This document shows, piece after piece, positions 7,090 through 53,926 of a stretch of 64,000 nt of DNA. This DNA comes from Ruditapes philippinarum (Eukaryota). The stretch covers positions 1-64,000 of the forward strand of contig NW_026864408.1 in assembly GCF_026571515.1 (NCBI RefSeq), given 5' to 3'. The notes under the pieces were generated by a model, which was given only the letters and a program-made list of their open reading frames with translations, was not told the origin of the DNA and did not search any database. Within the stretch, counting starts at the first letter, position 1. Every line of letters starts with the position of its first letter. A program made the translations under genes and the position numbers.

Positions 7090-8730
7090 TTCTCTATTTT
7101 TTGAGTGCTTCAATCTTCTCAGGATCTGTCTTCACACCATCAGCACTAACAATGTGACCCAAATACTGGACTTGCAGCTTAAAGAATTCACACTTGGACC
7201 CTTAAAGTTTAACATTGTGCATCTCAAGACGTTGAAAGACAGACTGAAGGCGACGGAAATGAGAATCAATAGAATCAGAAAAGATGATAATGTCATCGAG
7301 ATAAGTCAAACAGTCACGAAGGTGAAGTTCGCCCATACAACGGTCCATTAGACGCTGAAACGTTGCAGGGGCATTGGTCAGACCAAAGCCATTCTGTTGC
7401 ACTCATAGAATCCGAGAGGCCCAACACTAAAGGCAGTCTTTTGCTTATCAGATTCTTTGACTGGGACCTGCCAATAACCTGAGTGAAGGTCGAGTTTAGA
7501 GAAGATAGTAGAATCAATGAGAGAATCAATAGTTTCGTCGAAGCGAGGAAGGGCATAAGCATCCTTGATTGTACGGTTGATCAGTTTCCGGTAATCGATA
7601 CAAAAACGCAAAGACCCGTCCTTTTTTTCCTTGCTAACACAACATTAGAAGAAAAAGGGACTCTTGGACTCACGGATCGCTCCTGCCCGAAATCATGTCT
7701 CGTAAATGCTCACGTACCTCCTTAAACATCCCTGGTGGTATTCGGCGATACGGGTCTTTAGAAGGTGTGGGATCAGACAGATTGATTTCATGTTCGACCA
7801 AGTCAGTAGAACCAAGATCAGTAGGCCCAGAGGAGAAAATATGTTCCCACTGACTGAAGAAGGAAGTCACCTTAAACTTCTGTTCAGAAGTTAAAGTTTC
7901 AGTGGGAATAGAAATACCAAGGTCATTAAGAGTCTTGTCTGAATTGTGGGATTTATCAGCAACGCCCTCTGAAGGATCAATGGTGCGAACAACAGACACA
8001 TCATGTAAATTACAAAGAGTCATTCTTGGATAAATGGCGATAGATCTAGCAGTCAAGTTACAAACACGTACTGGAACCCTGCAAAAAGAACTACCAGGTT
8101 GTAATTTAACCAATCTAGGGCACACATTCAACATAAGAGGATCAGTAGACTCTGTAACACCAGAAGACATTTTGCCAATATGTCTCACCTTTCCCTCAAG
8201 TGTTGTTGTTTCGAAAGGCTTAACAATGATAGTCTAATGATGAAGAAGAGTAACAGGTTTGGTGACAATGTCAGGCAAGGAAGATATGATGTCAGAAAGT
8301 GGAGATGATGTTGACTCTGTTCCTGATGACTTCAAAACGTTCAAAATGTTGGTGCCTATTATCAAAGGGACTCTGCAGGAGTATTCTGTGTCTGGAACAA
8401 TCAGAATAGGACTGAAAAAGATTGTGATGAAAGACAAATATCAAGAACTGAATATCCAAGATATGGTACCTTAGACTCATTAGCAGAAGAAATATCCAAC
8501 ATAAAATCGAACAACTGTGACATGACAGGCTGGGGCTTTAAAGATTTGAAGAATGAAATTCCAATAGATGAAATCATAGAGCCAGTATCTATCAAAGCTA
8601 TAGTAGAAGTACCATTTATAAGAATTTCAGATTCATAAGAAGAGCCAACAAGAGGAAATGAAGAAGCAGGGTCATTAGAAGGGGAAGTATGACCTCTCAT
8701 CTGCCCTGCGATGGAGGTCGACTAGTTTAA
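7090..8730 (-). pseudogene. Gypsy pol remnant: aspartic protease plus reverse transcriptase, frameshifted; RNase H and integrase not visible
   Basis: Protease motif ALIDTGSMIS (ORF 8401-8700). RT motifs RFCIDYRKL, SKLDLHSGYWQV, KTAF, FGLTNAPATFQRLM and YLDDIIIFS are spread across ORFs 7378-7611 and 7202-7402. Recognisable similarity stops near 7090, only ~750 nt from the 3' LTR. Confidence 0.93.
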
Positions 8731-9784
8731 AGGACTGGCAGAGGTTTTGACTTACTGAGTGGAAGATCTCTCTTGTTTTAAACCCTTGAGTTCTCGATAC
8801 TAGACAGCCTGGATTCCATGCCTTCCATCTGCTTAGAAAGGGCCCTTATTACCTGAAGAAGTTTACTATCTAGAGTAGTGACACACTGCTGTGCAGGAAC
8901 AGACTCATTAGGAGTATTAGAAGTAGTAACAGAAATATTGGCCTGAGGTTGCCTGCCTAGAGGAAAGATGGACAGCTAACAAGGAAAAGCGTAAGTCTTC
9001 CTCAATGGCTGTCAACTCTTTACGAAGATTATTGAAGTTGAGGTCCTTCCGAAAAAGAAATCTAGAGGCATTCTTAAGCTGTATATCACGAAGGCCTGAC
9101 CACAACCTACCCCGCAACATCTCATCCTTGGACATGCTATCAAGATTGCAAGGTATCCTGCTTAGCAACCTCTCCAGACGCAAACTATAATCAGCAACAG
9201 ACTTATCCACCTTCTGCTGTTCATTATAAAACTGTTTCTTCAACATTTCAGTTGAATGAACATTACCATAAATGCCATCTAACTCATTCAAGATCTCATG
9301 AACAGTGGCATTTTCACCTAAAGAACACCTCCGTCACTGCCTTTCAATGATTTACGAATGGCCTCCCTGATGGTAAATGGTGGATAATTACCCTTATTTA
9401 TGTCACAATTGACATCATAGCGCCATATCTCAAACATTGACGAGTTGTATTTCCCATCTCCTGAAAAAGAAGGTAACTCAGGGATACGGCTAAGTACCAA
9501 ATCCCTATTTGTCACAAAAGACAAGTATGGTTGAGGGTTAGGCATGGATGGAGGAATGCTATAAACAGGTGGAGGAAAGTGGACCTGATGTGTATTCTAT
9601 ATGTTCTGCTGATATGTTCCCGGATAGGAGTAGGTGTAACATCAAATGTATGACTTGAGTGTATTGTATGAGGTGTACTTGCCATCACATTTACTTGAAA
9701 CTTACCAGATTTCTGTAACTGTTTAGCAAAAAATTCCAGATTTGCATCTGAATAGTCTATGGACTGAGTTGTACCATCTTCCAT
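8730..9784 (-). pseudogene. Gypsy gag remnant (PNMA/Ma-like capsid), frameshifted
   Basis: LPSFSG...FEIWRYDV...AIRKSLKG (9318-9545) and LDGIYGNV...FYNEQQK...SVADYSLRLERLL...LWSGLRD (8917-9291) are PNMA-type gag signatures, split over three frames. Confidence 0.85.
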
Positions 9785-24099: not shown

Positions 24100-27000
24100 T
24101 CATGAAGCGGATGACTCAATCACACATTTATCGTCATCTTTGAAGGTGTCACACAATGCCTGGTGAAATTGTTTTGTTGTTTGAGAGAAAAGGTCTACAA
24201 GATACACATGTCTTACACTGCTGTATTGCTCCTCGCGGAAAAAGTTCCTCACAGCTCCAACAATCAGAGGAGCCGCTGTCTTAGCAGGCCATCTACAATA
24301 GCAAATAAGAAATGATTTTTTTAAACATATACATTTGGTCGATGTATACGAAGTTTAAATAGATTGCATCATTTCTAAGTCAGTTTTGGCATTTTTTTTA
24401 ATTGCTTAAACTTTGATCGTGTTTATTTGAGCTTACGTGCAAAGTCCATTAAAAGTAAGACTTACTTTAAGTAATCTTTAATTCACAAATACAATTAGTT
24501 TTGTATTTTTTAAATTTGTCCATAAGCTTATGTAAAAACATATCTCTCCTAAAGACATGGGTTCGACCAATTTGTTTCTCTTTAAATAACAGCGACAGGA
24601 TCAAATAAAAATAACATTACTTTTAACGCATGTGGAAGCTGTACATTTTTAAAATACAATTTGAGACGCTTAAGAAATGTACTTGTTAACTACTTATATT
24701 ACGTTATGAAAATATTAAGTTTAGAAGTAGCAGAAATGTACAAAAACCAATTCCTCAAGGAATGTAAAAATTAGGAGGAATTGTGCACTAAAAGGCTTAA
24801 CAAGCAACATGTTCAATTAATGGGTAAAAATATATTGTATATTAGATAAAAATGGAAATATATGAATAATGTTTACGACTCCTAATACATTATACCTCAA
24901 CCAGCAATGATGAATATTTCCAGGAAAGTGCTTGGTTTTTTAAGATCAACCGGATATATTGGTCCGTTTTTCTTACCGCGTTGATCGTTTCGGCCATATA
25001 TTGAACTTCTTAGGGTCTATTTAAAATCATAACATAACATAGCCATAGCATAGTATAAGTGGTATCTTTGTATTACTCAAATTTTATCGACAAACGTGGA
25101 TTTCAAAGTGACTTTGATCATGGAAATGACCATTGGGAAAGACTACTAAGATGGCCGCAATCGTTGTTTGTCGTACATATTATGATCAATATACAAATTA
25201 CAGTCAGTTAAGAATAAAATTTGCCCGAGAAAAAGTTTAGTTGAAGTAAAGGGAAATAAATGCCACTGGAATGAAACCAGAACCTTATTTGATGCAATAC
25301 ATTTTTGACTGCTAGATGCTTGTCAAATTTTTACGTCGGGAAACTCCATCCACCGTGTTGTGCTCAAGTAGACTCTTTAAATTGATAAATCTGTTGTGAT
25401 AAACTGTTGGCTAAATATACCCAATGGCACAACAAGGATTATGAACATGCGTTCCTCAACCTCAGTTCTGATATGACTTGATTGTCTAACTGAGAAGCTT
25501 ACCACCTCCTAGTGGACAACAACATTGATACCTCAATTCTGGGGCTCAAATTTTCTGAACAGTAATTTGGATTTGACTCCATAAACTTTTTTAATAAAAC
25601 ACTGCGGACCCAATTACACCTTCAATAATACTAATGTGCTTCCTATACTTTACAATAAGCTTTATTTCTTGTGATTTGATTGCATGAATTGAATGACCAC
25701 ACGGAGGAGCCGATATAAATTTGACTCCATGTTCTTAGACACTGGTACCTTTTCATATTCTAAGATAAGTGATGACCTATACTCGCCAATAGCAACATAT
25801 CTTCTTTGTCGGAAGATGTGCCATCACAGAAAATGTACACGTATCGCAAGGCAATTGCCTCATACTGATTTCAAGCATTTTATTTTCATGTGGCAGCTTT
25901 AACTCGATGTTATGGGAGTCAATGTAAATTGTTCTTTGGCATACCAATGAATACTCAAGATACCACGATACCGCGTGTAATATAAAATTACTCTTTCATT
26001 CACAATATCTCACATACAGTCATGTCCATGAGCTAATTGTACAGATAAAGAAAAGGAAACTCAATAGATAGTGTGGAACATAATAGGTTTTAATGATACT
26101 GAAGCGGTTTCTTAAAGCGTCAAAGGAGATATAATATAAAATAACGATTAAAAACATAAAATAAATTTACCCAGAATATCCACATCCTATTGCTGGTATT
26201 GCAATGGTGCGAGCTTGTTTCCTTGACGCCTCCATTAGCACACGCCCGACCGTTTTCTTCAGTAGTGTTTCCTCCTCGGAATCCCTTTTGTCGCACACAG
26301 GACTATTCACGTGAATAACGTACTTTGCTTGTAAATCTCCGGCCTCACTTACAAACGTATCACCTTCGTCAATACTGCGCTGTGTTTGCAGAAACTGGTG
26401 ACACGCTGCTTGAATGCTAGATCCACCTGTAAAACGGGTACACAGCATTTATTCCAAATAGTTATGGAACATTTATTTCAACTGTAGAACAAACAATTAC
26501 TTCTGCATTACTTGAATGTGAAAATAAGCGTAATTATACATTTACAGTTTAATGTTGCTCGATTTCTCTAATTTTATTTGTTTGTTGATATACAGACATA
26601 CAAACTTTGATTAGCAATTAAGTGTTTCTACTGTTATATATACAAATGAAGGAATATTATCAGACGTTTTTTGTGATAAGTTCAGTTTGCTTTCAGTTTC
26701 TATTTATAAGCATGGAATATTTTCAAACAGCAATATATTCAACAAGGTATGTGTACCGAAAATACTAAACAAAATGTTCAACCTGCCAAACAAATGACTC
26801 CCAGTCGAATGCATCCTTAAGCAGTAAAAAGCCCTGTCAAGTATTATGAGAAAGAAATAGCCCATAAAGAAAATAGTCACAATTCGGTTTTAATTACTAT
26901 AGAAATGATATGTTTACCCTTATCCCTAATTGTTTTTGATATTCCGGTTTCGAAAGAAAGGCATTTGTTCGTGGTGTTGACAACAGCCTCTGCCTCAATG

Positions 27001-30000
27001 TCAACTAGTGACCCTTTCATGATAAAAATTCGCCTGCCACAAGCCATTAAACACTCTGCTATCTTTTCAGTATCTTTTGAGTTGACTATTTCCGGTTCTG
27101 ATTCAGTTTCTTTATCTTCCTCTTGTTTTTGACAGCTTTCTTTTGAACTTCTTGCCCCCGTATCTTCATCTTGGTTTTCATTTGGACAAAATGAACGTGT
27201 TGGCGTGTACACTTTTTTAAATCTTCGACCATATAAGCAATCTTTATGACTGGGTGAACTGTTATCTTTCCGGCTCATGATCTTACTCAGGTTTGGTTTT
27301 GCACATCTATTTCGTGAAACTTTAACCTGACCGAAAAGGTCTTGAAATATTTTCAGAGCGTTTCGTTTCCACATTTTTCGTTTTCGTGACCATATGCAAG
27401 CGTCTCTATATTCTTCTTTCGACAAGGATCTTAATAAAATACGTTGTTTTTCACCTTGTTTTCTCTCCGGCCAAAGTATCTTTGCGTCAATATAGATCAT
27501 TGTTTCTTCAAGTTTCTCTCTTTCTTTCTGATTACCAAGGACATACTCTAATTCCTCCTCATTAAACTCTGTATATTCTATTTCATCTTCACTGTCATCG
27601 TCTTTGTCTCTAGAGGGAATAAACTTTGGCTTTGGTTTAATTTTGGGTTTTTGTTTTTGGGCGTTACTTGAGTGTTTGATTGAACCAATACCATGATGTT
27701 GTGCTCTTTCTCGCTCTTGCGTGATTGCTGAAATTAAGAATTCGTAAAGGCATATTAAGAAGACAATTTGTTTAACTTCTTAGCATAACTTTAAATGGAA
27801 AAGCATGGAATACGCATACAATTGCCTATTTTCCGATCAGAATTCAAATGCATAATATTAATTGCATCATGAGCAACTGATAAGGTGCTTATTTGTGTAT
27901 TTACGCAATAAATTGTACAAAAATCTTCACCACAATGTTAACGTAAAAGACCTACCGATATAAAAGTCCGGATCAAGCATTTTGGCAGTATCTTCTAGTT
28001 TACAGTCAATCAAAATATTTAGGAAAGACCTGTACCAGTCCATTACGCGTCGTGGAAGATACATTAACAAAATGCAAGCAGCTCTAAGTGCACCATGATT
28101 GTTCTCTTCAGATGTTATCTCTTGTACATCCTCTTGCGTGAACACTCCTTTGCTTAAAAGATGAGGCAAAAGCTCTGATGGTCTTATTAAACCTATAAGT
28201 TCTGGGGCAAAGAGTTCGACAATTCGTACAAAGTTCCTGTCCTCAGGGTCATATTCGCCATCGAGGATTCTCACAATTTTAGGGTAGCCTAAAACAAGAA
28301 TGCTTCATATATTTAGCTCAAATTGAATCATATCTGACAATATCATTATTCAAAATGATCTTCAAATATCTTTAACAGATGTCAAACAATTCAATCACCA
28401 TTAATTAATCACTTATCATTCTGTTAATCTTTTAAAATATCTTGGATTTGTCACAATTTCGATAACAAATTATTATATTTCACGACTGATGTATATAAAA
28501 CTTGTAGCTTTTAGTGAATGAAAACAAATATAGCTGGTTGTGTTATATGTGTGAATTGAATACAGAGACCAATATTTAAGGTATAAGTGAAACGCAAGGA
28601 CATTCTTGGTGTAAATATTTAATAACAAAATGTCTGTTCTTGCCGAGACGCTTAACATCGTCAATATCAATGGGTTGATTCTTTTATGTATAAGAAATCC
28701 CTTTGAACCTACGAACCTATCAAGTTTGAGAAAGACACTGTATCTACATAAGGGTTCCTAAAATTTTAACACTTTTAACACTTTTAAGTCTCTTTTCGTT
28801 ATAAGAACTGGAAATTTGGCAATTGTTATTTCTTATCTAATCAGCGACATATCAGATATATATTTGTGTAAAAAGTACCTCCATTTTGTTCCAAAGCATC
28901 CCTTAATGCTGCAAATCTCCCTGGATCCTCTACACTGTCTAATAACATATCTAAAGCTTTTCTAGATGCTCTGATGGGACTTTTTTCCGCCAAAATGTCT
29001 GATTTTTGGTCTGAAAGAGTACAGTTTTAGTACATTTAGGAATATAACGAGTTAGTTAATTAGCATAAAGAAGGTGTGAGAGACATAATTTATGTAAACG
29101 CGTCTTTTATTTAATCTAGAATTAGTGAACTCAAGACCCATAGGGGCCTCAACTTCCTGAAAATTTTAAAGACACCAAGAAAAGTCAATTTTAGTGAATA
29201 ATGAAGTTGTATTATTGAATATTGAACTTGTATTTGTGAATAATGAAGCTGTGATAGCTGTATCAGAGAATACTAAAGTTGTACTAGTGAATAATGAAGT
29301 TTTATTAGTAAAAATGAAGTTAAAATAGTAAGTAAGGAAGTTATAATCGTAAATAATAAAATTATAATAGTGAATAATAAAGTTGTATTAGTGCATAATG
29401 AAGTAATAATAGCGAATACTGAAGTTGTAACAGTGAATGAATAATGAAGTTATAAAAGTGAATAATGAAGGTGTATTAATGAAACGTGAATAATGTAGTG
29501 AAAAATTAAGTTGTATTAGTGAATAATTAAGCTGTAATAGGGAATAATGAAGCTTTATTGGGGAATATACTGTACAGTTATATGCTATTCTTCAAAATTC
29601 AAACATTTTAATAATTTTCACACAGAATAAAGCAGAATTACGTGCCACTTTGTAAACGTTAGATTTAAGTTTTATTTTAAATCATAACACAATTCATCAA
29701 AATATTTCAGCACCATTGCCAAAACAACTAAAACATTGAAGAGAGAAAGGGGGACAGAGGGGGAAGAGGAAGAGAGAGAGAGAGAGAAAAGAGCATGATC
29801 ACAATTTTACCTGGGGTATAACATTGCAAGTATTGGATGAGAACATCTGGTTTTATACAATGGCTGATGTAGATCAAATGCTTTCTCAGGTTCTTTTCAA
29901 TTATTTCATCTCTCGAATAGTTTGTATCTTCTGCCTCTTCTTGTTCTTCTTCTTCATGTTAAAAGAGATAGAATTGAATAAAATATTTTCTTTTTTTACA

Positions 30001-30272
30001 ATTTACATATCAATCTATAATTTTTTATTAAAACCATAAAATCCTATTAAAGATAGAAATAAAGACATAAATTTTTGTATTAGCTTGACTTCAAGGGCAT
30101 GGTAATTTATTATTTTAATCTTTTATATATTATTTATTTATTTATTTCATTTATTTATTTATTTACTATCTAAATTATAAATTGATTAATTTATTAATTT
30201 TTTATTTAATTATTTATCTTTTTAAACTTATTATTTATTGTAACTTACACACTCATTCATTCATTCATTCAT

Positions 30273-30318
<46 letters not shown>

Positions 30319-33300
30319 AATACATTGATTAATTTGTTTATCAAATTATNNNNNNNNNNNNNNNNNNNNNNNNNNNNNNNNNNNNNNNNNNNNNNNNNNN
30401 NNNNNNNNNNNNNNNNNNNNNNNNNNNNNNNNNNNNNNNNNNNNNNNNNNNNNNNNNNNNNNNNNNNNNNNNNNNNNNNTTAATTTATTCATTTGTTTAT
30501 TTAATTATTTATTGTTTTAAGCTATATTTATTCATCAATTAATTAATTGATTCATTCATTCATTCTTTCATTCATTCATTCATTCATTCATTCATTCATT
30601 CATTCATTTATTTATTTATTTATTTAACTAATACATTGATTAATTTATTCATTTGTTTATCAAATCATTTATTGTTTAAAGCTTTATTAATAAATTAATT
30701 AATTAATTTATTTATTTATTTATTCATTCATTCATTTATTTTATTTATTTATTTATTATTTAACTAAAACATTGATTAATTTATTCATTTGTTTATCTAA
30801 TTATTTATTGTTTAAAGCTATTTTTATTCATCAATTAACTAATTAATTCATTCATTCATTCATTCATTCACTCACTCATTCATTCATTTATGTTTTAAAA
30901 CTTTATGTATTTATTAATAAATAATTCGTTAATTTATTTATCTATTTATTCATTCATTTATTCATTCCTAAATTTATTTATTTATTTATTTATTTATTGA
31001 CATAATCTTAAATAGCTTTTAAATTACCCTTTCAAATACTCATTTAACACTTATTATGATGGGCCTTAAGCCCGTCTCACACAAAACACGGTTGGACACA
31101 CGATTCCCATACGGTATACTCGGTTATACACGGGTTGACTGGTACGAGTTTTGAGCTTCAATCGTGCTTGTGGATTAGTTGGCACGAATTAGACTCGAAT
31201 ATAGCACGAGTATGTACGAATTGAGCACGGATATACTCGGTCAAGCAAGGTTTGAACACGATTTGCATACGAATATATACGACTGCTGTACGGTTCCAAG
31301 TACGGTCTAGTACGGTCTGGTACGATTAAACACGACTTTTACTCGATTTACTCGACTTTCACAGGGTTTACATAGGGTCCCGCCGACTTTTGTTCGAGTA
31401 AAACTCGAAATATCAAACATTTGTGTATGTTTTGATATAAATTAACCCGTTTTGATGTCTTGGCTTTCGAAATTTCAACAAAGAACACCTGTATATAGAT
31501 CATTATAAAACTGCACGTTCGTAACGTCGCTTTTCATTGGATAATCGTGACGTTTAAATAGTTTTATATACACGGCTGTTGTCGATTTATAAAGAAATCT
31601 CGCTTTATTCCTCTAAAAATGATGCTTGCTGGGTTATATTTTACAAACAGCCGTTTATATAAGGCCATATAACCTGTCAACAATCTTTTTAACTAATATT
31701 AACATCAATAAATGAATAAAAAGGTGAAGCAATGTAAAATGAATGTGTCTTTTTTCTGTTGTGCAGCGGTTGCTGGAGGGTCCACCGAGCTGGCATTGGA
31801 GTCTGAATCCCTGGGAGACACGGTTATTGCCGGTTGGTCCTCCACCTTATCAGGGTCAATAAGTTTGAGTGGTCGGTGGGCCTGGATGGTTCTTCTTGTA
31901 TTCCTTCTATGCGTCCAAGACTTCTTCTTTGGATACATTCTAGTGTGATGCAGCAAGCACTATTGGTAGGGTGGCAGCAGTTAGTTGTGTTTTTTGTACC
32001 GTTCTTGCTGAGCCGTGTTAGACCGTACGAGGCAGTGTGAGACCGTGTATACCCGTACTTTACCGTGTCGGCCATGTATGTTTCGTATATGAACCGTATT
32101 GGTCATATGGCGATCGTATGAAACCGTGTGTGCACTGTTTTGAATTACCTATCTTGTGCAATTTGGTGTTAATCGGTGTATGTAGGACTTGGGGAGGCCC
32201 CTCGAAGTTCCCAACGATTTAATACGACCTTTGAAGGGTTTGGGGCCCCCACTCGGGGAAAATGGACTTCACATTTACGGGTATAAGGCCCCCTCATACG
32301 GTCTCCAACGGCCCCTTTACGGTTTGACGGGTGCTTATACGGTTGATAAACGGACAGGGCATCCGTACCATTTTTTTTTAAAATTTTTAAAAATCATACA
32401 CGGCTTACACGGATACACTCGAATTGCCCGAGTGTAACTCGGATAACGCTACGGTTAGTTCGGTTGAATGTACGGTTTACACGGGTGGCCAACCGTGTAA
32501 GCCGTGTGTCCTGTGTGAGATGGGCTTTATCGCTTGTTCAAGGAAAAGGGATTGGGTATAGTAAGAGGGATTGCAGTATTGTGACGTAATTTTATCGTGG
32601 TACTTCCTTCATCTCATTGACAATGAAGTGTGATAAAATGAATACACTTCGAAATATAAAGTCAAGTGTCAAATTATTATTCAAACACATGCAGATATTT
32701 TAAATACAATACATATACTATACTAGGCAACATAACCTTATTAACTGAAATAGTACGGACACCTTTTTTAATCTACGATAGTACATAAACCTACTTATTT
32801 CAAACCTGGAATAGTTACTTTAACTAATGAATATCCAGCATTTGCACTAAGTGATGTCATAATGTAAATCATTTACGGCTCCAAACATCAATTTAGCTTC
32901 GATTTGTGTTGTTGTTTTTTTTCTTCTTTTTTTCTTCTTTTTTGTTGTTGTTGTTTTTTTTTTTCTTTTTTTTTTCTTTTTCTAAATAAAAAATACAAAT
33001 ATTAAATGAACATTTTACTCTATTTATCTTCGATCCAAGTCAAAACATCCATATAGACTCCATAGTGTACGCTTGCATTCTAGCCTCGTTTTTATTTTTC
33101 AGGTCCAAAAGTTCCATATCAAAAGAATATTGTACTTGTAGAAACTGTACCATTAATACAAAAAATAGGTTAAGTATGTTTTTTTCCTAGGAATATGGTT
33201 GTGCAATACATGTATGTAGCAATTTATTGAGTATCGCAATATTTATCTTGCAATATGTATTGTAAGATGTTTTCAGATATCGCAATATATTAAAGCTATA

Positions 33301-40400: not shown

Positions 40401-43400
40401 CCAGCAGTGTCATATTTACACAACTGCTTTTGATCTAAGCGCTAAGTTTAAAAAAAATCTATTGACAGTTTTAAATCTTTATGTTTATCTTACTGTAGCA
40501 TATGCCTTTATACTTTCATTTGTTATATTTTCTCAAGATGAAAAAATTACAAAGCGAAGTAACACTTTTCAATGACACAAATTTCAAATTGCAATTGTAA
40601 TTTCAAATCAAATCAAATCCATCCATGCAATGCCATTTTACATTACATGGAATAATTCTACGTCTATGAACTCAACAGAGATGTGGCAAAATAATAATAC
40701 ATAATATTATACTATATTACCTGTTATACTCATAAAACCGTAGGCTGATTGTAGGTGAAAAGCAAACACAAAATATAAATGAATTTTCTGTTTAATTGAA
40801 TTTTTGTAGAATAAATTTCTCGGTGTGTTAGATCCATCTTAAGCTGTTGTTCTAGCTCAAATCCATGACATCTTGGCTGCTAAAGAAACCGTATACAAAT
40901 GTGTTTTATCACCAAGGAGGTCTTTGACATAAATTACAGTTATCAATTTATAATACCGACTAAGATGACTGGAGTTTCAACCACTTATTTTGTACATCAT
41001 AGGAAATTCTTCCCTATCTGATAGATAGCAAGTCCCCAGATTGACATAATACCATTTTGTGACATAAATTTATATATTTCGACATTTAACGTTAGTGTTA
41101 TGACATATAACGGTAAGGGGAAATGGTGCGACATTTAGCGTCATGATTGCGACATTTAATGGCAAAATATTTTGAGACATTTAGCGGCGGTTGCGATATT
41201 AAGCGGCAATATCGCGAAGTGCGGCATTTAGCGGAGAGTGCGACATTTGGCGGCGCCACAACGTCAAACCCCAAACTAAAGTTTGGCATATAATATAAGA
41301 AACACTCATTAAAATGAAAAGTTTGTTCAAGTTATATTTCCTTTCGTTTTTTTCCTGTTTATTTTGTTGTTCGGTGCCCCTTTTGAACGGTTTGTCCATG
41401 ACGTAACCCGATATCACTATCTGTAGTGCGACCTTGCAATACAATAGTCTGAGCCTTAAAACAATGGGCGTTCATATATATATTTTTTTTTTTACTTTTA
41501 ATAAAATACTTTTACCTTTTTAAAAAACTCAATTAGTGTATTGACTAAACTAGCTAGTGGCAGATTTAATACCGTTTGACTTGTACGGATAGAAGACACA
41601 TATATACCCCATTACGCTTTAGTTACTGTAACAATATCCAATTCTGGGCGATTTTTACGGCCGCAACTTACTTTTGTTATATGTTCACCGAGCTTGTGTA
41701 ACATCGAATAGAGTTCATCGGAGGATATAAACCCATCACCATTTTCATCAAATATACAGAACACCTCGTGCAGTTCTTTTTCCGGGTCGATTGACAACTT
41801 CGTTGAAAAAATCTTGACAAACTCCTCAAAGTCTATCGTACCGGACTCTGGAAAGGAAATATTTATTTGTGTATAACATTTTAAAAGATTTTGACAGGAC
41901 ATTAACACAGCGTGAAATTATGAAATCGTGTCATCGAGTTTACGAACGATATCTAAAAACATATCATAATTATCATGGATAAACTAGTACAATGTATTTT
42001 ATTATCATTATACAAACAAATTGTTGACATATTTTGTCAATTACGCTACATTAAATAAACATTAATCATGCGATTAAATGCATTTAGATAAATTTTTATT
42101 TGAACTTTATCCTTATAATAAATAGATAAAAAAAAATAAACTTACTATCTAGATCAACCGAATGAATAAGTGCTTGAACCTCGGAAACGGTTGGCCGCTG
42201 TCCGAGGGCGTGTAGGACCGCCCCTAACTCCTCCTTCGTTATCATACCATCCTGATTCTTGTCAAACAAGACAAACGCCTCTTGTAACTCTGTGGGAATA
42301 TTCAAAGTTTAGATGTTAATTAATATAATTATTATGGTGTTCTAAATTTAAGCTGTATTTAGTTGTTTGTCGTTGTTGTTGTTTTTTTTTTTGTTTTTTG
42401 GTTGGTTGGTTGGGTTGGGTTGGTTGGTCGGTTAGTTGGTTTTGTTTGTTTGTTTGTTTGTTTGTTTTTGGTGGGGGTGCTTTTTCTGTTTTAAGCAACA
42501 TCAACACTGTTGTAATCAAATGGCGTTACTGACGCAGGAAAAATCTCCTTACATTATTTCAGCTGGGGTTCAGTAAGATGGTTCCGTAGACTCCTTTCAC
42601 GAAAGAATTCAAAGTCCCTATCGGATTCAAACCCACAGCGGTAAGGGGCAAGTGGTTTGAAACCCCTCGGCTACGGACGCCCCCATCTACCTGGATGAGC
42701 ATGGATCAAATCAGGTATTTTTGGATAGTATTCAGTGTCAAATCTTCGGCTAATTTCGACTTCAACTGTATAAAGCTGAATATCAGGGGAGATAAATAGA
42801 GTAAAGATTTTGGACTAGTCTGTGATGAGTTGTCTTACGTAAATCAACCCAATATAAATTATATAAAACATATCTGAAAAATTATCTTCTTAAAACTCCG
42901 GATTATCTCGGTTTGACAGAAGATATGATAGGTTTAAGATACCGTTTGATTTTAAAATGTTTTTATAAGAAGATAATGTGAATTTGACCTATTTTTTCTT
43001 AAATTATTTCAAGATAGAAATTTCGAGTAATTTGTCAAAAACTGTGAGTGTTAACTCACATATTAATAAGAATTTGTTACAAACAACAATAAAAAACATT
43101 ACAAAATAACAACAACAACAACAACAGCAACTATCAATATATGTTATATACATTAAAGGCACATAACGAACAAATTGTTACTTCTTAAGAAAATTCAAAC
43201 ATGATTTTAAAACATTTAGATAATGGTTTTAGAGCATGTAAGTTGCTTGTTACCTGAAGAAAATAGCTGTTAATCATAAAAGTAAAAAAATGAAAGCATA
43301 GTAGTATTTTGACTTCCATACAAAACACTAAATCACTGTAACTAGTTTACTGCCAAAAAGCAACAGAAGAAAAAGAAAGGTCAGGTAATTTGCATTTGCC

Positions 43401-46400
43401 AATGCATATCTTTTTGGAAACTTGAAAAGTAAAGCGTTTTTGAAATAGAAATAAAAACATTCGTGGGGCATAATGGGCCTTTATGCACGTTATTGAGTAT
43501 TTTAATTGTTAAAATCTCATTTTGTTAAAGAATCACATAGGACTATGGGTTTTGTGGCCAGATTGTTAAATTTGTTGACTTCAGACCACTTACTCTTCCC
43601 CGCTGTATGTTCGAATCCCAGAGGATCTTTCGACTCTTTAAGTTGAGGAAGTTATCCTGCTAGCTTCAGAACGTCTGTGGTTCTACTAAGGTACCTGTTC
43701 GTGATAGCATAAAGCAAGAAGGGCACCTACGTTCGTCATACACCAGCAAAGATGTAAAGTCGCCATATGACCTTTTCTGTGTTGATAAATCCGACCAAAA
43801 AAGACCAAAGAACTAAGTCAACCCTTAGCCTTTTAGTGACAATGGGTGGATTTAGCCCATGTGACCAGTGCACATGCAGGTCAAGATCAGGCTGCATGCC
43901 CGTGCCTTGATCAATGTCTGCACTGATCGCCTTTAAGTCAGTTCATATCTTGAAATTTTGAAATGTTATCTATAATAATCGTTTTGTTCAGATTAAAAGA
44001 TGACGAGTTCGTGTAAGATATTAAACGTATTTAAAGGTTGAAAATAAATGTAATCACTAAAGTCATAGATTTGATGTCTAAAAGAGCAAATGATAAAAGT
44101 AAAACTGTCATAATCATATGAATAGAAATTCATAGATTTGATACCTATGAAAGAAAAGTTAAAATAATCAAAAAATAATAATTCTATGAATAAACTTAAT
44201 CAAAAATTCATAGTTTTGATATACATATATTTCTGAAAGCAAATTAAACAAGAAAGTTAAACATCACAAAATCAATGCATAAAATTCATAGATTTGATAT
44301 AACAGCATACATATTTAATATATGTAAACAAAATGGAACCAAAACAGTACTTTACTGCGAATGATTAAAAAATTATAGATTTAATAGATATTTACGTGAA
44401 AAAATCAAAATGTTACACCTTTATGAATAATGTATGTACGTAATGAAAATGTTACATCTTTAAAGAAACGTGTTTAAAAAGCAACAACAACAACAATAAT
44501 AATAACAATAACAACAACAAACTAACCTGTTCTGTCGTAATCTCCAGCCATGATTTCTCAAGGAGTGTAACAACTAACATACAAGATTGTTCTAAATCAA
44601 TGCACTTGTATATGTGATACAAGTAATCTTGCGATGATAAGTTTACCGAGGATGTGGTGATAATGTGTAGTGTTATGTCTTGTAATATCAATGGAATACC
44701 GATTATATGTAAGCTTTCTATTTATATGTAATGTCGGTAAGGTATTTATATAAAACAACTTGACATAGTCAAAACAAAAGACAGAACATAAATTCATATA
44801 CAGGTACAGTACAAAAATGTAGATATTTATTGAAGTTTCATGGCCTAATCTAAATGGTAGTAAGCATTTTATAACCAGAGCTGGTAGGAAAACGGTTATA
44901 AAATAACAAACAAACTTACATACACGACCATATCAAAAGGCTTTATAACGAATTCATTTTAAGCACAATTGCTTAAATTGATTGAAACAGATAATTCATC
45001 ATTTTTTGCAGCAGACGTGTTTATAGATAACTTAAATGTCACGATTATCTTATGAAAATAGACGTAGCAAAGGTGCAACTTATTAAGCATTTACGAAGGC
45101 TGATCACTTCCGGTGTCAGAAAATTAAGGATTAAAGATGTACATGTATCCTGAATAATAATCTAATGGATATATAAAGACCAAGACATGACCCGCGAAAG
45201 AAGACAAAATATATAGGGCATAATGATGTGCTGTTGTTGTTGTTGTGGTGTTGGTTGTTGTTGTTGTTGTTTTTGAAGTATATGTATTGTCATATTTCAA
45301 AATTTCTTTTTCTAAATTGTTACCTTGTAATTTTTCCTCAGGAAGACTGGATTTTCTATCAGATGCCGATTTCGGTGTTGGTGTCAAAGTTGCCTTTTCT
45401 TCGGTCACGTGAATTCTTTTCTTTTCCACTACAGGATGTTTAAGATTTACTAAATCCTTGTGCACTGGATTATCTTTCGGTTTACCCTTTGTATCTGTGC
45501 CAGTGGCGCCTTTACTTGCAGCCGGTTTTGGCACATTGTCAATTTTTGGTTTTGGTGCTACTTTGGGTCCTTTTTGAATCTTTGACTCAGTTGTCGTCCC
45601 TTCACTACTTTGTTGTGAAAACTTCTTGCGCAATAGTTTGAAAGCGTCCTGTAACAGAAAGAAGGGATGTAATGATAACTTGTGTTTATATGTATTTAGT
45701 AAGGGTGTGTTACTAAAAACAATAATATAAAAAATAATAAGATGTCGTTAAAAAGCAGTTTAGAAAAATGTCTTTGTGTGAAAAAGCCGTAGAAATTGTT
45801 TTTGCAGAATAAAGTGGCGAATTCTTGTACATATTTGCGTTCTGTCTTTGTTAACGTGCAAATGGAACTTCCGCTGCCATACGGGAATAATAAAAGAATA
45901 TAAGCAAAAACATTATACATGATTGTGTCGTGATAATTACTAAATCCTTAGGCAGATGAATAAATTTTTAGAACATGTGCAAGTAAAAATACAGTCTCTT
46001 TCAACACTAATTAGACTGAACAGAATGAACTCTAAGCAAAAGATGTGCATATTTCATGATTACATATTACATTGTATGTACATAAAGATACTATCTCGGC
46101 AACAGATGTTACACTGTCACAGAATACAGATGTTTTGTACTCGCGGAATATACATTCAAGATGCTGATTAACCATGCTACTGTTTGTTTTGTGTACTTTC
46201 CCAAGAACTTATCAATTCAAGAAAAATTACCGACAAGTCTATTGTTTTTCTTCCGTTATTTACCAAGAAAATATCAGTTCATAGAAAGGAGAACATATAA
46301 AGAGGTTGATGCACCAAATCGCCTCCTAGGCCTAACTATATCATGAATATCGTATTATGGTACCTGCATTGAGCGAGGTCAGCACTGTTCGTCATCTTGT

Positions 46401-49400
46401 CAGTATATTTATTTTCAAAATCATTTCAAATGATGATTGGTTATTGACCAGAATGTAAGATGGACATGTCCGTTTAACTTTAAGATATTTAGCAAGGTAA
46501 GGAAATATAAACAAAGAAGCAACATTGGTCGTCTGTAAGGAATAGTGTTTTGCAGTGTTTTAATCATAAGACAAATACCTTTTTAAATTGATCCGAGAGT
46601 ANNNNNNNNNNNNNNNNNNNNNNNNNNNNNNNNNNNNNNNNNNNNNNNNNNNNNNNNNNNNNNNNNNNNNNNNNNNNNNNNNNNNNNNNNNNNNNNNNNN
46701 NNNNNNNNNNNNNNNNNNNNNNNNNNNNNNNNNCACACCCACTTTGTTTACATAATGACGTAATCATGTGTACACTTAAACAATAGAATGGGTGACACAA
46801 ATGTTTTAATCCCGCCAAAAAAAAAAAATGGATGCCTTTATGAATAAAAAATGGCGCTGAATAACAATAGAAAGCTTAGCACACAAATTAAACCCGCCAA
46901 AAAAAATAAAAATGGTTGCCTTATTAGATTTGAATAAAAAATGGCGCACTGTTCTTCCATAACAAAAGAAAACGAAACATAATTGTAGGGGTCACATAAA
47001 TATGGTCTAAAGTACACAATAGAAAAATGTTACCATAACTAATTCGGTCAAAATATACAAAGGAAAACTATAATCAAATTATTGGTTTAAACTATGAAAA
47101 GAAAATTAGGACAAAATATTATTAATAAGTCTAGACCAGCTGTGGTCAACTCATCTAATAAGCTACTTTAGTATCTAGTATTTCTTCTTCTTGATATTGT
47201 ATTTTACTATCATCAGAAAAATGTAAAGTTTAATCAATTGTTTACATAATGACTTAAGAGTGTGTACTTTATAACAATAGAACAGGTAACACTCCAAAAA
47301 AGTCAATCTTATACATGTAAATGCAAAATTACATTTATTGTTTTCTTATAATATAATGAGGCCTGTTTTGTTATTTTTCCAAAAATTGACATGTCATATT
47401 TTTGCACATGTTGACAAGAAACAAACCTATGCCACTTGTTTTGTATATAATTCTCTTCATTAAAGTTACTATGCATCACATCCAAGGCCAGCAATTCAAC
47501 CTCTCATTGAAGGCAAGTACTTTCTCTGTGGTTCATACAATGCTTGATCTAATTAATTTACTGTGTATTTCTAAAGCAGTAAATTTGATAAAACTTGATA
47601 GTCAGGTGGGATACATACAAAACAAGTTACCTTTTATTTAGAATTCATACCCAATTATTGTTTTCTTATAAGATAATGAGGCCTGTTTTGTCAATGGTTT
47701 CAACACCTACATGTATCTTTAGAACTCATTAGAGTAAAACAAAACAATAATTGTCAATGAATAATCCTTAATAAGAAAATAAATCTTTCTTTACCAGCTA
47801 GTAAATCTTGCTTTTATCATATTTATGGTTTAAACTCTTAACCAGACAATGTGGTTACCTGATAAAACAAACAATCCTTTAAGTATGTATGACCAGTATG
47901 ACCCCAGATGTAACATATATTTCAACCAGGTAATAAATCCACAAAGGGACGCCTTTCTGTGTCGATGTTTCGGATCAGTTATGAACATTCATTTATTCAA
48001 TGGAGAAATTTTAAATGATTTGATTTACCACTTTTAAGCGAGGATAGGAATTACAACCTAAAATTATATACATTGTACTGAAACTTTTTTTTATTCACAT
48101 TCTTATTTTTTATATTTTGATCTAGCAAAGATTAAACATTTTCTGCTGTTAATTGCCAGAACGAAGAAACCAATTAAATCTTACATTTCAACACTGAAGT
48201 GATAATGTCATCACCTTGGAATTTGTATAGCAATGAACCGTCAGATTTTTAACATCTGTGAAATTGATGTCAGCGCCAAGATAAACATTGGTCCTTTTAT
48301 GACTTGATAACAGAAAGAAACAATAATTAAAAGTTTTTATTTCATGTCAATAAGTAAGCCCTTTGTATACAGGTGTGTCCCTAAATTACTCACTTCTTGT
48401 CCACTATTAAAAACGAGTTCTTCCTTATAGTTGCCACAGTATAACTATTTTCCTGACATGCTTGAAGTGGTAATATGGATTTTACTTAATATTCAAAAAT
48501 ATCATCAGAGCAAAAACAGCTATTTGGTGATAGATTTTTATGTCATGTTTTCACATACCCATGACTAGATTTCTCTCTCCAGATAACTTTTTTTTGCATT
48601 TCAACTATATACACCCAGGCGCAACATGGATTAGTTGGACGATTTAAGAAAAGGATATACATAAATTTATAAACAAAATAAAACAAAGATCTAATAATAC
48701 AGTTTAATTTATTTATTACAGACTGCATTTACAAAAAGAAATATTTAAAATAAAACGCATTTGGCATATGATAAAAAAAAATGTTCCAATCATAATGTAC
48801 CACACTAACATTTGTCCTTTTGTCTTTCCAAAATATGAATAAATAATATAAACTTTCACATGTCTTTAATAATTTGTTCATTTATTGATAAAATGTCAGT
48901 ATTTATCACTACTAGTTTCTTTTTCACTGTCATCATCATCATCATCATCATAATCATCATCATCATCATCAAATGTTTCTTCAAGTTCTGGTAATGGGTA
49001 CTTGTCCATAACACGTTCTAACATAAATTTTCTTTTTTTAACAGCATACTGTATAGCTTCATCAGTTTCGAAATTATCTTCCTCTCTCAATCTTTTAACA
49101 GTTCCCATGATCTTTTTATGTGTAGGATTGCGCTGAAGTGCATACATTTTTCCAATAAAATCCAAATAAACTTCTCTGAATGCTTTATGATACACGGAGC
49201 GTAATTTTTCAAAAGCTTTATTTCTTATTTCTTCAAGAGAGCTATCAGGGTCTTCATTACGCATTTTACTGGCTGTTTCATTTAAAACGTCATCTCCTTG
49301 TTCATATGTGAGCTCTGTAAAATACTTCCAGATGTCAATATGTTTGTTCTTGTTAACATCATCATATTGTTTGCCATTGTCATTCCCTATAGTAGAAGAT

Positions 49401-52400
49401 TCATCGTCATAATCTTGTTCACTGTTATCGTCTTCTTCGTAATGATGAGATTTGGATCTATTAGGTCTCAACCGATCGAAAATGTTTCTATATAGATAAG
49501 GTTTACGATTTGGTTCCTCATCTGATGTATTTCCATCGCTGATATTATTTTCAGACATACTGTTCTTATGTTTGAGATGCGAATGCCTATTTAAATTGTA
49601 CTTTTTATTGAATTTTTTATAACACAAAAGACATGTGAATACCATTATTTTAAGCGATCAAATGGCAAAATTAATGCCAATTCTCCTTTTTATACTCCCA
49701 ACTAATTTATTTCGTTTCTCATTTTCTCGTTTTGCTTGCTAAGTGGCTCAATTGGGTGTTCATTAACTCATTTTGCTTGCTCAGTCGCTCATTTTATTTG
49801 CTCATTTGCTTATTTTGCTTGCTCATTTGCTCATTTGGTTGCTCTTTTGCTCATTTTGGTTGCTCATTTGCTCATTTCACTTGCTCATTTGCTCATTTGC
49901 TTGCTCATTTGCTCATTTCACTTGATCATTTGCTCATTTCACTTGCTCATTTGCTCATTTGGTTGCTCATTTGCTCATTTTACTTGCTCATTTGCTCATT
50001 TGGTTGCTCATTTGCTCATTTTGGTTGCTCATTTGCTCATTTTGGTTGCTCATTTGCTCATTTCACTTGCTCATTTGCTCATTTGCTTGCTCATTTGCTC
50101 ATTTTGGTTGCTCATTTGTTGCTCATTTGCTCATTTTGGTTGCTCATTTGCTCATTTGGTCGCTCATTTGCTCTTTTGGTTGCTCATTTGCTCATTTTGG
50201 TTGCTCATTTGCTCATTTGGTTGCTCATTTGCTCATTTTGGGTGCTCATTTGGTTGCACATTTGCTCATTTTGTTTGCTAATTTGCTAATTTAGTTGCTC
50301 ATTTGCTCATTTCACTTGCTCATTTTCTCATTTGGTTGCTCATCTGCTCATTTCATTTGCTCATTTGCTCTTTTTGGTTGCTCATTTGCTCATTTAATTG
50401 CTCATTTGCTCATTTTGGTTGCTCATTTTACTTGCTCATTTGCTCTTTTTGGTTGCTCATTTGCTCATTTAACTTGCTCATTTAACTTGCTCACTTACTC
50501 ATTTGGTTCCTCATTGCTCATTTTACTTGCACATTTGGTTTCTCATTTGCTCGTTTTGGGTGCTCATTTGCTCATTTGATTGCTCATTTACTCATTTTTC
50601 CTTGCTCAGTCGCTCATTTTAGTTGCTCATATGCTCATTTTGGTTGCTCATTTGCTCTTTTTGGAGTGTTACCTGTTCTATTGTTATAAAGTACACACTC
50701 TTAAGTCATTATGTAAACAATTGATTAAACTTTACATTTTTCTGATGATAGTAAAATACAATATCAAGAAGAAGAAATACTAGATACTAAAGTAGCTTAT
50801 TAGATGAGTTGACCACAGCTGGTCTAGACTTATTAATAATATTTTGTCCTAATTTTCTTTCAATAGTTTAAACCAATAATTTGATTATAGTTTTCCTTTG
50901 TATATTTTGACCGAATTAGTTTATGGTAACATTTTTCTATTGTGTACTTTAGACCATATTTATGTGACCCCTACAATTATGTTTTCGTTTTCTTTTGTTT
51001 ATGGAAGAACAGTGCGCCATTTTTTTATTCAAATCTAATAAGGCAACCATTTTTATTTTTTTGGCGGGTTTAATTTGTGTGCTAAGCTTTCTATTGTTAT
51101 TCAGCGCCATTTTTTATTCATAAAGGCATCCATTTTTTTTTTTTTTTTTTGGCGGGATTAAAACATTTGTGTCACCCATTCTATTGTTTAAGTGTACACA
51201 TGATTACGTCATTATGTAAACAAAGTGGGTGTGGATCCCCCCCCATTCATCACATTCATTCATTCATTCATTCATTCATTTATTTATTTATTTATTTATT
51301 TATCTGCTGTTTGGCCAATGAGTGACTTTGGAAATTGTAACAGAACACTTTAGTATAAATAAGCTTTGGAAAAAACAGCAAGTTTTAGTATTAATCGGCC
51401 TGGTTATTACCAGCAAACAAGTCTGGAAATATGCAAATCAAACACTCATTACACAAAAAAAGAGAAAATATTTGATATAAGAGCTTAGCAAATACATGAA
51501 ATGTGTATACATGTAATCGTCTGCGTCTTTTGGGTTTCAGCAAGGAGGAAATTTAAAGAGCTTTAGTACCATCTTATTTTCAAAAGATTCATCAGAAAAT
51601 TATAAAGATCTTTTAACACATTTTAGACATCAAAAGGCGGGTGAAAAGATTTTAATTATTTTCCGATGAAAATATTTAACGTATTTGATAAATGGGACTT
51701 TAAATAATTTTCATAACTTTTTATACAGTGGTGTATTCTTCAGAACAAAATCTTGTTGTGAAGTTTGAAAATACCTTGCTCTTAATATCTTAAAAATCTC
51801 GAATACCACAAACGCTGCATTGTTCTTTGTATATTATACTTCTCGGTGCTTTAAATACAGGTCATGATAACGGAGGCTGGCACCATGCCGTAAATACCTA
51901 CAGCTCTGGAAATCTGCCTAAAACTTTTACCTTTACTCTAAATGTTTATTCCGGTTTAATGGCTAAATGAAACATGAAATATACAATTGAAATAAATACT
52001 TAAAGCACTAAAAACGTGCAAAAACATTTTTGGCTGAGAAACAACAAGGTAAAAAATATGTATTTATTGCATTTTATTGGTGTTCATTTTCACTAAATCT
52101 TTTACTACATCTGTATAGGATTTTCTTCCCGTATGCAAGTTTATATTATGGTTGTTTCCAGGAATACCGTGCTTAAATAAAATTGATTCCATTCTTTTAG
52201 AAATTTTTGAGGAGGGGGGGGGATTATTAATTATCATTTTTGTGTTTAAACAATTTTTGTTTCGCGTTACTCTTCCAACATAAAACTATGGAAAACGTGC
52301 ATGTGAAAAATTTAATAAAATCTGAAGACAAAATGATTTTTCGTCTGTGTCGTGTACAAACATTTGTTGATTTGTTGATATAAAATTTCGACGTGTACAA

Positions 52401-53926
52401 TCATTTGTTGATATGAATTTACGTCGTGTACAATCATTTAGTGATTTGATTATTTTTGTCGTGTACAATCATATTTTGTTGGTGATATGACTTTTCGTCG
52501 TGTACAACCATATGTTGATTTTTTTATATAGAATTTCATCGTGTACAATCATTTCTTGATTTGTTGATATGAGTTTTCATCGTGTACACTCATTTGGTGA
52601 TTTGATTATTTTTGTCGTGTACAATCACATGTTAATTTGTTGATATAAAATTTCGTCGTGTACAATCATTTGGTGATATGTATTTTTGGCGTGTACAATC
52701 ATATTTTGGTGATATGATTTTTCGTCGGGTACAGTCATTTGTTGATATGAGTTTTCGTCGTGTACTCTCATTTGGGGAATGATTATATTTGTCGTGTAAA
52801 ATTAATAGGTGATATGATTTTTCGTCGTGTACAATTGTTAGTGATCTAATTGTTCGTCGTGTATAATGTATCGATATAATATTAGCCGTTTTCTCTTGAT
52901 AAGTTCAGAACTTGATAGTCCTTTTTGATCGTACACGGCGTAGCTTATTTTCATCTTATTTATAACAACAACAAAAACGTGTTAATGTTACACACCTTAT
53001 AATATAAAAATGAACTGTCAAACGGTGATTTTGTATTTTTTTCAGCTCTATAATTGATATATGATATGATTACAAGTATCTAATGTAACATCACGCTTAC
53101 GGAGTCGTTTTGTATTAGTCCATCAAATAGGAGACTCTGGCCAATGTAAGGTAAATATTCATGTAAATTCCTATAAATTTGTATTTGTTAATTAATTATG
53201 ATATTTTATATATTTCTCTAACGCATGGACTCTGTCTGCAATCCCATTTGTTTTTGATTTATACAAGAATTAATGATATTTTCGTTTCTCGTTGATGTAA
53301 CACATTTATAAATTATTACAGATGTGGTCTTTCATACAATTGCCGATCCCTCAAAATTACAATTTCCCCGAATTACTTCTGCAAATAAACATCCGTCTTC
53401 TGAATAGAGCACTCAGTGACCTCTGTGATTATTTATCTTGATTGTCTCTTTTTTAATTTAAAAGAGTATGTTTTAAAGATATATGAACAATTATAATATT
53501 TTAAAATATTGAAAATCGGTACATTGTCTCTTTGTATATAAAGACAAAGTCAACATGTTTCAACACAGAGTATTAAACACCTTACACACTATGGGATACC
53601 ACAATATGAATACTAGCAGTTTTGTTGTTGTTGTTGTTGTTGCTGCTGCTGTTGTTGTTGTTGTTTTAGAAAGGACAAACTTTACTTGACCTGTTATAGG
53701 GAATGCAGCTTCACGTAAATAGTTTTTACATTTTTGTCTGATTCAAATTAGTCATATCCAGTAAGAATTTCATAAATTACAATAAACTTCGATCTGCAAT
53801 AAAATTATTTTACCCAAAGATGGGCTTAGTATATCTGTAATAGAAGATGAATAAAATTGTTATTTCAAGATTATTCATCAATTTTGTCCTGTTCAGTACA
53901 CAATAAAAGTATCCGTGACTCACCAT
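37450..53926 (-). CDS. Calmodulin-like 4-EF-hand protein with N-terminal extension (246-aa long form)
   Basis: Exons 53926-53924 (ATG|gtgagt, tentative), 45648-45324, 42289-42146, 41847-41672, 37816-37753, 37478-37450 (TAG); phases 0,1,1,0,1; 741 nt. EF loops DKNQDGMITKEE, DLDKSGTIDFEE, DENGDGFISSDE, DLNRDGKVDYRE. Too diverged to be canonical calmodulin. Confidence 0.88.
38352..41260. mobile_element. Non-autonomous TGT...ACA DNA element (Ginger/TDD-like termini) with inverted subterminal repeat arrays
   Basis: Left end TGTAGCGTCG plus a CCGCTAAATGTCGCA array (38370-38560); right TGCGACATTTAGCGG array (41077-41250) ending CGGCGCCACA. Flanks acgtt / acgtc. Lies in an intron of the calmodulin-like gene. 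Confidence 0.6.
39150..39335 (+). mobile_element. tRNA-derived SINE (MetaSINE-like family), partial
   Basis: B box gggttcgaatcc; core ttcatgtga.gaagc...gcttacggaacgtcggtggttctac; 3' ggaaagtcgc.atatgac. Same family as 43547-43790 and 63645-63848. Confidence 0.75.
42480..42683 (-). mobile_element. tRNA-derived SINE, internally deleted, with (AAAC)n/(AACC)n tail
   Basis: Minus strand head ggggcgtccgtagccgagggg...ccgctgtgggtttgaatcc; microsatellite tail at 42400-42470. Confidence 0.6.
43547..43790 (+). mobile_element. tRNA-derived SINE (MetaSINE-like family), diverged full length
   Basis: A box gtggccagattg, B box gttcgaatccc, core gaggaagttatcc.gctagcttc.gaacgtc.gtggttctac, 3' aaagtcgccatatgacc. 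Confidence 0.75.
44527..44551 (-). CDS. Candidate alternative first coding exon of the calmodulin-like gene (MAGDYDRT, 145-aa short form)
   Basis: atcATGGCTGGAGATTACGACAGAACAG|gttagt is phase 1, compatible with the acceptor at 42289. Confidence 0.5.
48896..49645 (-). CDS. Intronless 249-aa protein: N-terminal C2H2 zinc finger, helical C-terminal domain, acidic tail (element cargo)
   Basis: FTCLLCYKKFNKKYNLNRHSHLKH fits C2H2. TATAAAAA ~45 nt upstream (49694-49687), aataATGG start, AATAAA 10 nt after the stop (48886-48881). Confidence 0.85.
   Translation of the reverse strand: MVFTCLLCYKKFNKKYNLNRHSHLKHKNSMSENNISDGNTSDEEPNRKPYLYRNIFDRLRPNRSKSHHYEEDDNSEQDYDDESSTIGNDNGKQYDDVNKNKHIDIWKYFTELTYEQGDDVLNETASKMRNEDPDSSLEEIRNKAFEKLRSVYHKAFREVYLDFIGKMYALQRNPTHKKIMGTVKRLREEDNFETDEAIQYAVKKRKFMLERVMDKYPLPELEETFDDDDDDYDDDDDDDSEKETSSDKY
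49730..50660. repeat. TTGCTCAT-based tandem array (9-bp and ~13-bp subunits) inside the TIR element
   Basis: Seen directly; the overlapping plus-strand AHLLI/CSF ORFs are artefacts of it. Confidence 0.95.
52340..52870. repeat. ~30-40-bp minisatellite (gatatgatttttcgtcgtgtacaatcattt)
   Basis: The CGTGTACAATC core recurs about 15 times. Confidence 0.9.

Follow-up and report, generated by a model that had tools for sequence, protein, structure and literature searches.

Mavericks, also called Polintons, are 13–25 kb long and carry genes for pPolB, integrase, ATPase, protease and capsid. Our comparison with them is based on the accessible parts of four papers (PMC8097293, PMC10748475, PMC4028283 and PMC8502044), in the first of which the end motifs of vertebrate copies are given as (AGT)2, (AG)3 and (AC)3A, (AGT)2 being the commonest and (AG)3 also common. 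No standard for the end motifs of mollusc Mavericks was found in the literature. Non-autonomous, gene-less Polintons are listed in Repbase. We describe here an element of the clam Ruditapes philippinarum, seen at positions 46,734–51,305 of a stretch of 64,000 nucleotides (assembly GCF_026571515.1, contig NW_026864408.1, positions 1 to 64,000; the whole stretch is called the window below), in which long terminal inverted repeats (TIRs) enclose a single zinc-finger gene and a tandem array. On balance we take it to be a cut-down, non-autonomous Maverick derivative that is copied by a helper and whose protein is predicted to bind the element's own array.

Like Mavericks, the clam element has a long TIR, an intronless gene and an inferred AG...CT end, and relatives of its gene lie in (AGT)2-ended elements. 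Unlike them, it measures 4.6 kb and has none of the genes named above; it does not have the make-up of an autonomous Maverick and is likely a non-autonomous derivative. It resembles the non-autonomous Polintons of Repbase in its retained ends, absent enzymes and multi-copy state, and differs from them in keeping an intact, transcribed and conserved gene together with a matching array. Transpovirons are likewise small TIR-bounded DNAs that arose from the Polinton class by loss of genes and depend on a larger virus, yet they encode a helicase and ride in mimivirus particles, whereas the clam element lacks a helicase and resides in the genome of an animal (PMC5499653, in the portion available). 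The VANC anti-silencing proteins belong to VANDAL elements of plants, and their targets are often tandem repeats in VANDAL non-coding DNA; binding is shown for VANC and predicted for the clam protein, and the likeness is one of analogy, not of family membership (PMC5735166, in the sections available). The clam gene may correspond to an unnamed Adintoc gene of PMC8502044; no zinc-finger label occurs in the available portions of the supplement to that paper or of the supplement to PMC11131425. In the open literature covered, which was mainly on Mavericks and lay outside Repbase, non-open journals and figure-only supplements, the passages available describe no mini-derivative that keeps a dedicated regulator and its array, and they do not treat self-activation of Mavericks or satellites dependent on them.

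What is observed directly is the anatomy of the element, its near-identical copies, a polyadenylated transcript, the AGTAGT-ended context of related genes and the recurrence of the motif GAGCA beside them. In a global alignment, the TIR arms at 46734–47300 and 50658–51233 have 564 matches, two mismatches and 11 gap columns in 577 (Table 1), in agreement with an initial annotation, made from the letters alone, that had called them long and near-identical. The TIR is visible over 567 bp and inferred to be about 640–650 bp long, which fits the range of 100–1500 bp for Maverick-type elements (PMC10748475, part available). The left arm holds a direct repeat with CCCGCCA, spaced by 84 bp, as well as two TGGCGC sites and TGACGTAA, and a 55-bp unit is repeated at its inner end. 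We take CCCGCCA, TGGCGC and TGACGTAA to resemble E2F and ATF sites. Outward, the right arm passes through GATCCCCCCC and tracts of (CATT)n and (TATT)n, reaching ATCT at position 51305. The zinc-finger gene is the only ATG open reading frame (ORF) of at least 100 aa in the element; the ORF scan gave no pPolB, integrase or transposase gene, as expected from the annotated absence of mobility genes, and no ORF of at least 100 aa in the non-coding interior. The capsid profile had no match in the window, and the element, at 4.6 kb, is without capsid, ATPase and protease genes.

The gene has the compact layout of TATA box, ATG, intronless ORF and AATAAA that had been proposed for it, with an intact ORF of 249 aa and a TATA box, TATAAAAAG, about 40 nt 5' of the ATG. 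In RNA run X17, poly(T) loose ends occur at 48698 and 48708, in one contig each; the first lies 14 nt past AATAAA on the gene strand, where the genomic DNA beyond is not A-rich, and the second could be due to internal priming. The family is transcribed and polyadenylated. RNA run X15 was not counted as expression because coding and non-coding patches were covered alike.

The closest named protein to the 249-aa ORF is also from R. philippinarum (86%). A family profile retrieved 1967 representatives at a threshold of E <= 0.001, among them 636 with E <= 1e-10; the best 150 were viewed, and some of the weaker matches may be to the acidic linker only. Judged by these profile matches, the protein is a member of a large unnamed family of hundreds of clusters, with a recurrent layout of finger, acidic linker and helical domain ending in the motif P.H..IM.T-x13-EA...AV.KRK.L. 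The clam finger alone matches PF00096 weakly (E 0.061), and 38 of 84 aligned family members match it at E <= 0.01. The structure model is confident for both finger and helical domain; the modeled finger superposes on a Tramtrack finger with rmsd 0.6 Å over 27 columns (Foldseek E 0.53), and its CxxC...HxxxH pattern and predicted beta-beta-alpha fold mark it as a C2H2 zinc finger. For the helical domain no Foldseek match was obtained at E <= 0.001 and no family match, and the best VIA score, Z 6.9, is at background level for helices; as the domain was not modelled by itself, a new fold is not demonstrated. Searches of the ESM Atlas returned generic C2H2 clusters and none for the helical domain. 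The clam element points to this large family as an accessory gene of Mavericks, with a domain for which no known fold was matched. Kinship with ChaB, hinted at by a PF06150 match of one member (E 3.4e-4), is unsupported; PF06150 reached E <= 0.5 in three of 84 members, and hhalign to E. coli ChaB gave a probability of 0.4%. The LxCxE motif of adintovirus Oncoid proteins occurs in none of the 84 members. One high-copy branch of the family (P0004, P0022 and P0026, clusters of 333, 17 and 36 members) lies on megabase contigs and has repetitive N-terminal extensions (MLISMLL), possibly a read-through of an array of the TGCTC type.

A scan of metagenome contigs by the family motif, which matches 46 of 152 family proteins, gave 18 loci; 17 of these scored as ORFs against the family profile, and the other, L002, represents the L006 type in broken form. 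Scans of viral contigs yielded no confirmed family locus and scans of genome contigs none.

It is in the array that the gene and its surroundings appear to be connected, a probable link that the initial annotation overlooked, as it did the recurrence of the one-gene layout in other animals. The 0.9-kb array that had been noted next to one TIR measures 953 bp; it abuts the right arm, its other edge is 15 bp from the TATA box, and it is present at one end only. It contains 71 TGCTC sites, compared with 0.83 per kb in the remainder of the window, at spacings of mostly 8 and 12–13 with a period of about 21. Among the 84 members 49 fingers were found; of these, 48 have R at recognition position 6, 40 have N at position 3 and 35 have R at position −1. 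Table 1 of PMC1920264 (part available) lists GAG as the partner of fingers with the helices RSDNLTR, RKDNRKR and KSGNRIR, and from its sequence the helix of the family (R/K−1, N3, R6) is predicted to be of the GAG-binding type.

The motif GAGCA was fixed beforehand from the clam array and then scored at the other loci, a cluster being at least four GAGCA within 250 bp beside the gene; 17 loci were scored, L013 having been dropped as a duplicate of L014. Clusters were found at five of them (L011, L012, L015, L016 and L017), which places GAGCA first among 160 five-mers of equal GC. With shuffled flanks, 98 of 100 trials gave no locus and two gave one, and none of 400 random clam pieces reached three GAGCA. 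The clam arrangement, with the repeats upstream on the coding strand, is shared by the clusters of L011, L012 and L017. Unit lengths across hosts are 10, 21 and 42 bp, many of them near multiples of a helical turn, and these differing lengths suggest separate expansions. This evidence bears on one alternative, an ordinary Maverick derivative made by internal deletion, in which the gene was retained through its proximity to the TIR alone and the array is neutral and unrelated to the finger. Accessory regions do occur in the flanks of Mavericks, and 96% of the copies in vertebrates are defective (PMC8097293, part available); L007 and L002 carry broken versions of the gene, most of the helical domain is missing from the RefSeq clam relative P0001, and L006 has no array. 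We nevertheless regard this alternative as unlikely, given that arrays of different unit lengths in other hosts share GAGCA, which suits the conserved recognition residues, and that the clam gene is intact and polyadenylated.

The assignment to Mavericks draws on the ends of related elements. Single AGTAGT matches were left uncounted, about one per 1.5 kb (both strands) being expected by chance. AGTAGT ends were found at five of the 18 loci, in three families (L002/L006, L013/L014 and L007), most loci being too short for ends to be seen. L013 and L014 have 6.7 kb in common up to AGTAGT, after which their flanks differ, and L006 and L002 have AGTAGT...TAAATTAAGGTC in common between differing flanks. 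In L007 a perfect 23-bp inverted pair, AGTAGTAGG...CCTACTACT, surrounds a broken copy of the family gene; in L011 there is a similar AGTAGT motif only, about 300 bp before its array. With (AGT)2 ends around the family gene, this cargo gene occurs in Maverick-type elements. In L006, inverted repeats lie on both sides of one intact family gene, which points inward from the right end, and of a long non-coding part; the locus appears to repeat the one-gene TIR layout of the clam, its left terminus being cut by the contig end. The initial annotation's proposal of a Maverick derivative is in part supported by the family gene in (AGT)2-ended elements of other animals, and the Maverick association that it gave for similar ORFs is seen in AGTAGT-ended units and at no locus beside pPolB or integrase.

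A 60-bp hairpin lies just inside the AGTAGT end of L006 (3296–3355). The AGTAGT-ended element of L014 (814–9162) and L013 is at least 8.3 kb long and contains, besides the family gene, inverted repeats nested in one another; core Maverick genes are absent from the part in view. It also has two ORFs of unknown kind (133 aa and a 324-aa open frame), after which comes a near-duplicate downstream sequence. In L007 the broken family gene converges on an ATPase-like remnant, and the capsid gene of the contig belongs to a family that shows a double-jelly-roll fold (relative P0268; Z 20.9, rmsd 4.5 Å, 339 residues aligned to PBCV-1). A second virus-like unit of L007 (7803–12459), with the capsid family and a Walker-A ATPase (Pox_A32 E 0.046), adjoins the AGTAGT unit.

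The right end of the clam element is placed at 51305 because a flank contig of run X1, with 35 unplaced letters left of 51311 and hence, by calculation, a start 30 letters before 51306, would show the overlap expected for a branch point there; the letters of the contig were unseen, and the low-complexity DNA weakens the inference. At this position the end reads AGATAAAT, AG followed by a 4-bp microsatellite, which is none of (AGT)2, (AG)3 and (AC)3A. Could the element be non-autonomous and yet belong to a different TIR superfamily, such as Academ, Kolobok, Sola or MuDR, having captured gene and array from a Maverick? The terminus without common Maverick motifs would fit, as would the comparison of the clam and L006 TIRs, in which no alignable similarity was found beyond short motifs. 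We hold this to be quite unlikely in view of the likely AG...CT end with its terminal microsatellite and of the AGTAGT at every relative with a visible end; moreover the right flank begins with GCTG and not with TTAA, the target site duplication (TSD) of Kolobok.

If the clam element is a Maverick derivative, its ends would quite probably be cut and inserted in trans by the integrase of a helper. The protein would, as we lean to believe, dock between TIR and TATA box at the array's many GAG sites, whose number would strengthen the hold of a single finger. Tentatively, the docked protein might keep the element end open and transcribed, a self-sustaining switch working in analogy to the VANC anti-silencing proteins; we propose that such a switch would explain why gene and array were retained in mini-elements while other genes were lost. 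The main alternative to the switch is recruitment of the replication or packaging machinery of the helper: with the same origin, the protein would act at the DNA end, binding the array and bringing the mini-genome to the helper polymerase or packaging ATPase. That the array abuts the TIR is consistent with this, as is the ATPase-like remnant on which the family gene of L007 converges. We find it improbable, however, because 15 bp separate the array from the TATA box, because the array occurs at one end only, and because no fusion was found among longer family forms of 505–2000 aa (one unrelated multi-finger match), those of 437–504 aa being outside the search.

A broader proposal, that animal Mavericks have satellites of their own in the form of recurring mini-elements of 3–6 kb in clams and other marine animals, is doubtful at present. 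If it were true, such satellites would keep one conserved zinc-finger gene and a self-made binding-site array, by which they stay active or commandeer the helper, and might be packaged in helper capsids; the element would be the parasite of an endogenous virus with an evolving lock and key of protein and array. The 23-residue finger, the 0.95-kb array and the TATA promoter offer a compact system for tests.

Eight of the 24 listed sequencing runs were mapped on the window. In X1, X2, X3 and X9, DNA runs each of a different study, the depth over the element interior exceeds that of the flanks about 17–23 times, which we read as roughly 10–25 copies, depth being no exact copy number. Contigs of 751–1292 bp from several runs differ from the window by 2–4 letters, and near-identical copies are present in six DNA-type runs from six studies; in the small runs X5 and X13 the element is covered and the flanks hardly. 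This is a young family, as had been annotated, and a multi-copy one. Variable sites in the ORF among copies are three synonymous and five missense with no stops, too few for dN/dS. No contig across the whole element and no empty-site contig bridging 46601 to 51306 was listed in the mapped runs, and the lack of cover at 51316–51599 in runs X2 and X9 is no proof of insertion polymorphism. An assembly artefact, in which a single-copy arm was inverted at the scaffold gap, is scarcely credible despite the start of the left arm at the gap and the want of a spanning contig, because contigs of run X13 join TIR to array (50532–50999) and ORF to array (48979–49875), the left arm is prolonged outward in an X5 copy by the mirror of 51234 onward, depth is high and even, and the arms differ by indels.

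Other clam families match the element over roughly the outer 230 bp of the TIR, or over the array, before diverging from it; the shared outer TIR is marked by loose ends at 46961 and 46981, with 30 letters visible each. These families are candidate helpers. In runs X1, X2, X3 and X13 a TIR variant has 58–59 bp at 46799–46858 swapped for CGTGTGTCA(C), a short palindrome, and represents a sister family. Contig depth in run X3 is about 30,000 on the outer TIR (46772–47055), 1,900–6,900 on the ORF (49044–49611), 385–680 in the interior elsewhere and 19–38 in the flanks, an excess for which a chromatin-type library, amplification bias or an abundant TIR-sharing element are the options.

Several observations weigh against the view of a Maverick derivative with a protein matched to its array. 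The clam terminus AGATAAAT shows AG only, neither (AGT)2 nor (AG)3, and no TSD, which in Mavericks is 6 bp long, was seen, the left junction being inside the assembly gap and the terminal tract outside the read mapping. The family gene is beside pPolB or integrase at none of the 18 loci, most of which are 1–2.7 kb long. The L007 unit has no TSD (AGAATA on one side, ATGCAC on the other), its remnant, which we take from its motifs to be a packaging ATPase, gave no relevant match in any library, and the capsid gene of that contig is about 6.7 kb outside the AGTAGT unit. As to the array, 12 of the 17 loci have no GAGCA cluster, several with very short flanks, though not L006 and L007; L006 has an R-N-R finger and long flanks and still no cluster; L017 has an array and T at finger position −1; and the five positive loci amount to about four lineages. 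A single finger reads about three bases, GAG is short, and the recognition code comes from engineered multi-finger proteins. Finally, the poly(A) evidence is from one study, and the RNA may stem from any copy.

Table 1. Features of the clam element and its borders (positions in the window)
Feature	Position	Strand	Basis or remark
Assembly gap, 132 N	46602–46733	.	conceals left terminus, ~72 bp of TIR and left target site
Left TIR, visible part (567 bp)	46734–47300	+	sequence comparison
Non-coding interior, 1.4 kb	47301–48697	.	kept between copies; contigs of 1030–1292 bp with 2–4 other letters
Poly(A) signal AATAAA (48712–48717); poly(A) site 48698, second site 48708	48698–48717	-	RNA run X17
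Intact intronless 249-aa gene: C2H2 finger, acidic linker, helical domain, poly-Asp tail	48896–49645	-	ORF, profiles, model
Conserved helical domain, residues 105–214	49004–49333	-	pLDDT mostly above 90; no known fold match
C2H2 finger, residues 4–26; recognition residues K−1, N3, R6	49568–49636	-	profile, structure model
TATA box TATAAAAAG	49686–49694	-	sequence; function inferred
TTGCTCAT array, 953 bp (ATGAGCA on gene strand)	49709–50661	+	TRF periods 21/41/62
Right TIR including terminal (CATT)n(TATT)n tract, inferred end ...ATCT	50658–51305	-	end inferred from contig geometry
GCTGTT, TSD predicted if the element is Maverick-type	51306–51311	+	sequence only

The element is flanked by predicted exons of a host gene of the EF-hand (calmodulin-like) type on the minus strand (41612–53925), with EF-hand exons by Pfam at 41615–41917 and 42099–42308, an exon near 45340–45649 and an exon ending ATG|GTGAGT near 53925. 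The element gene and its poly(A) site are on the same strand as the predicted host gene, and the intron placement is itself predicted; a poly(A) signal of a young family in a host intron may truncate host transcripts. A second tandem array, of GTCGTGTACAATCATTT units with a period of 33–41, is present 1 kb to the right of the element (52349–52867). Elsewhere in the window, an (ATTT/ATTC)n tract at 30122–30998, of the repeat type of the element's end, surrounds a second gap of N (30350–30479). The minus strand also carries an LTR-retrotransposon remnant at 7670–9246 (Retrotrans_gag E 0.007) and, at 26877–27500, a 207-aa ORF, which has no Pfam support and whose end, by its motif, presumably resembles the start of a macro domain.

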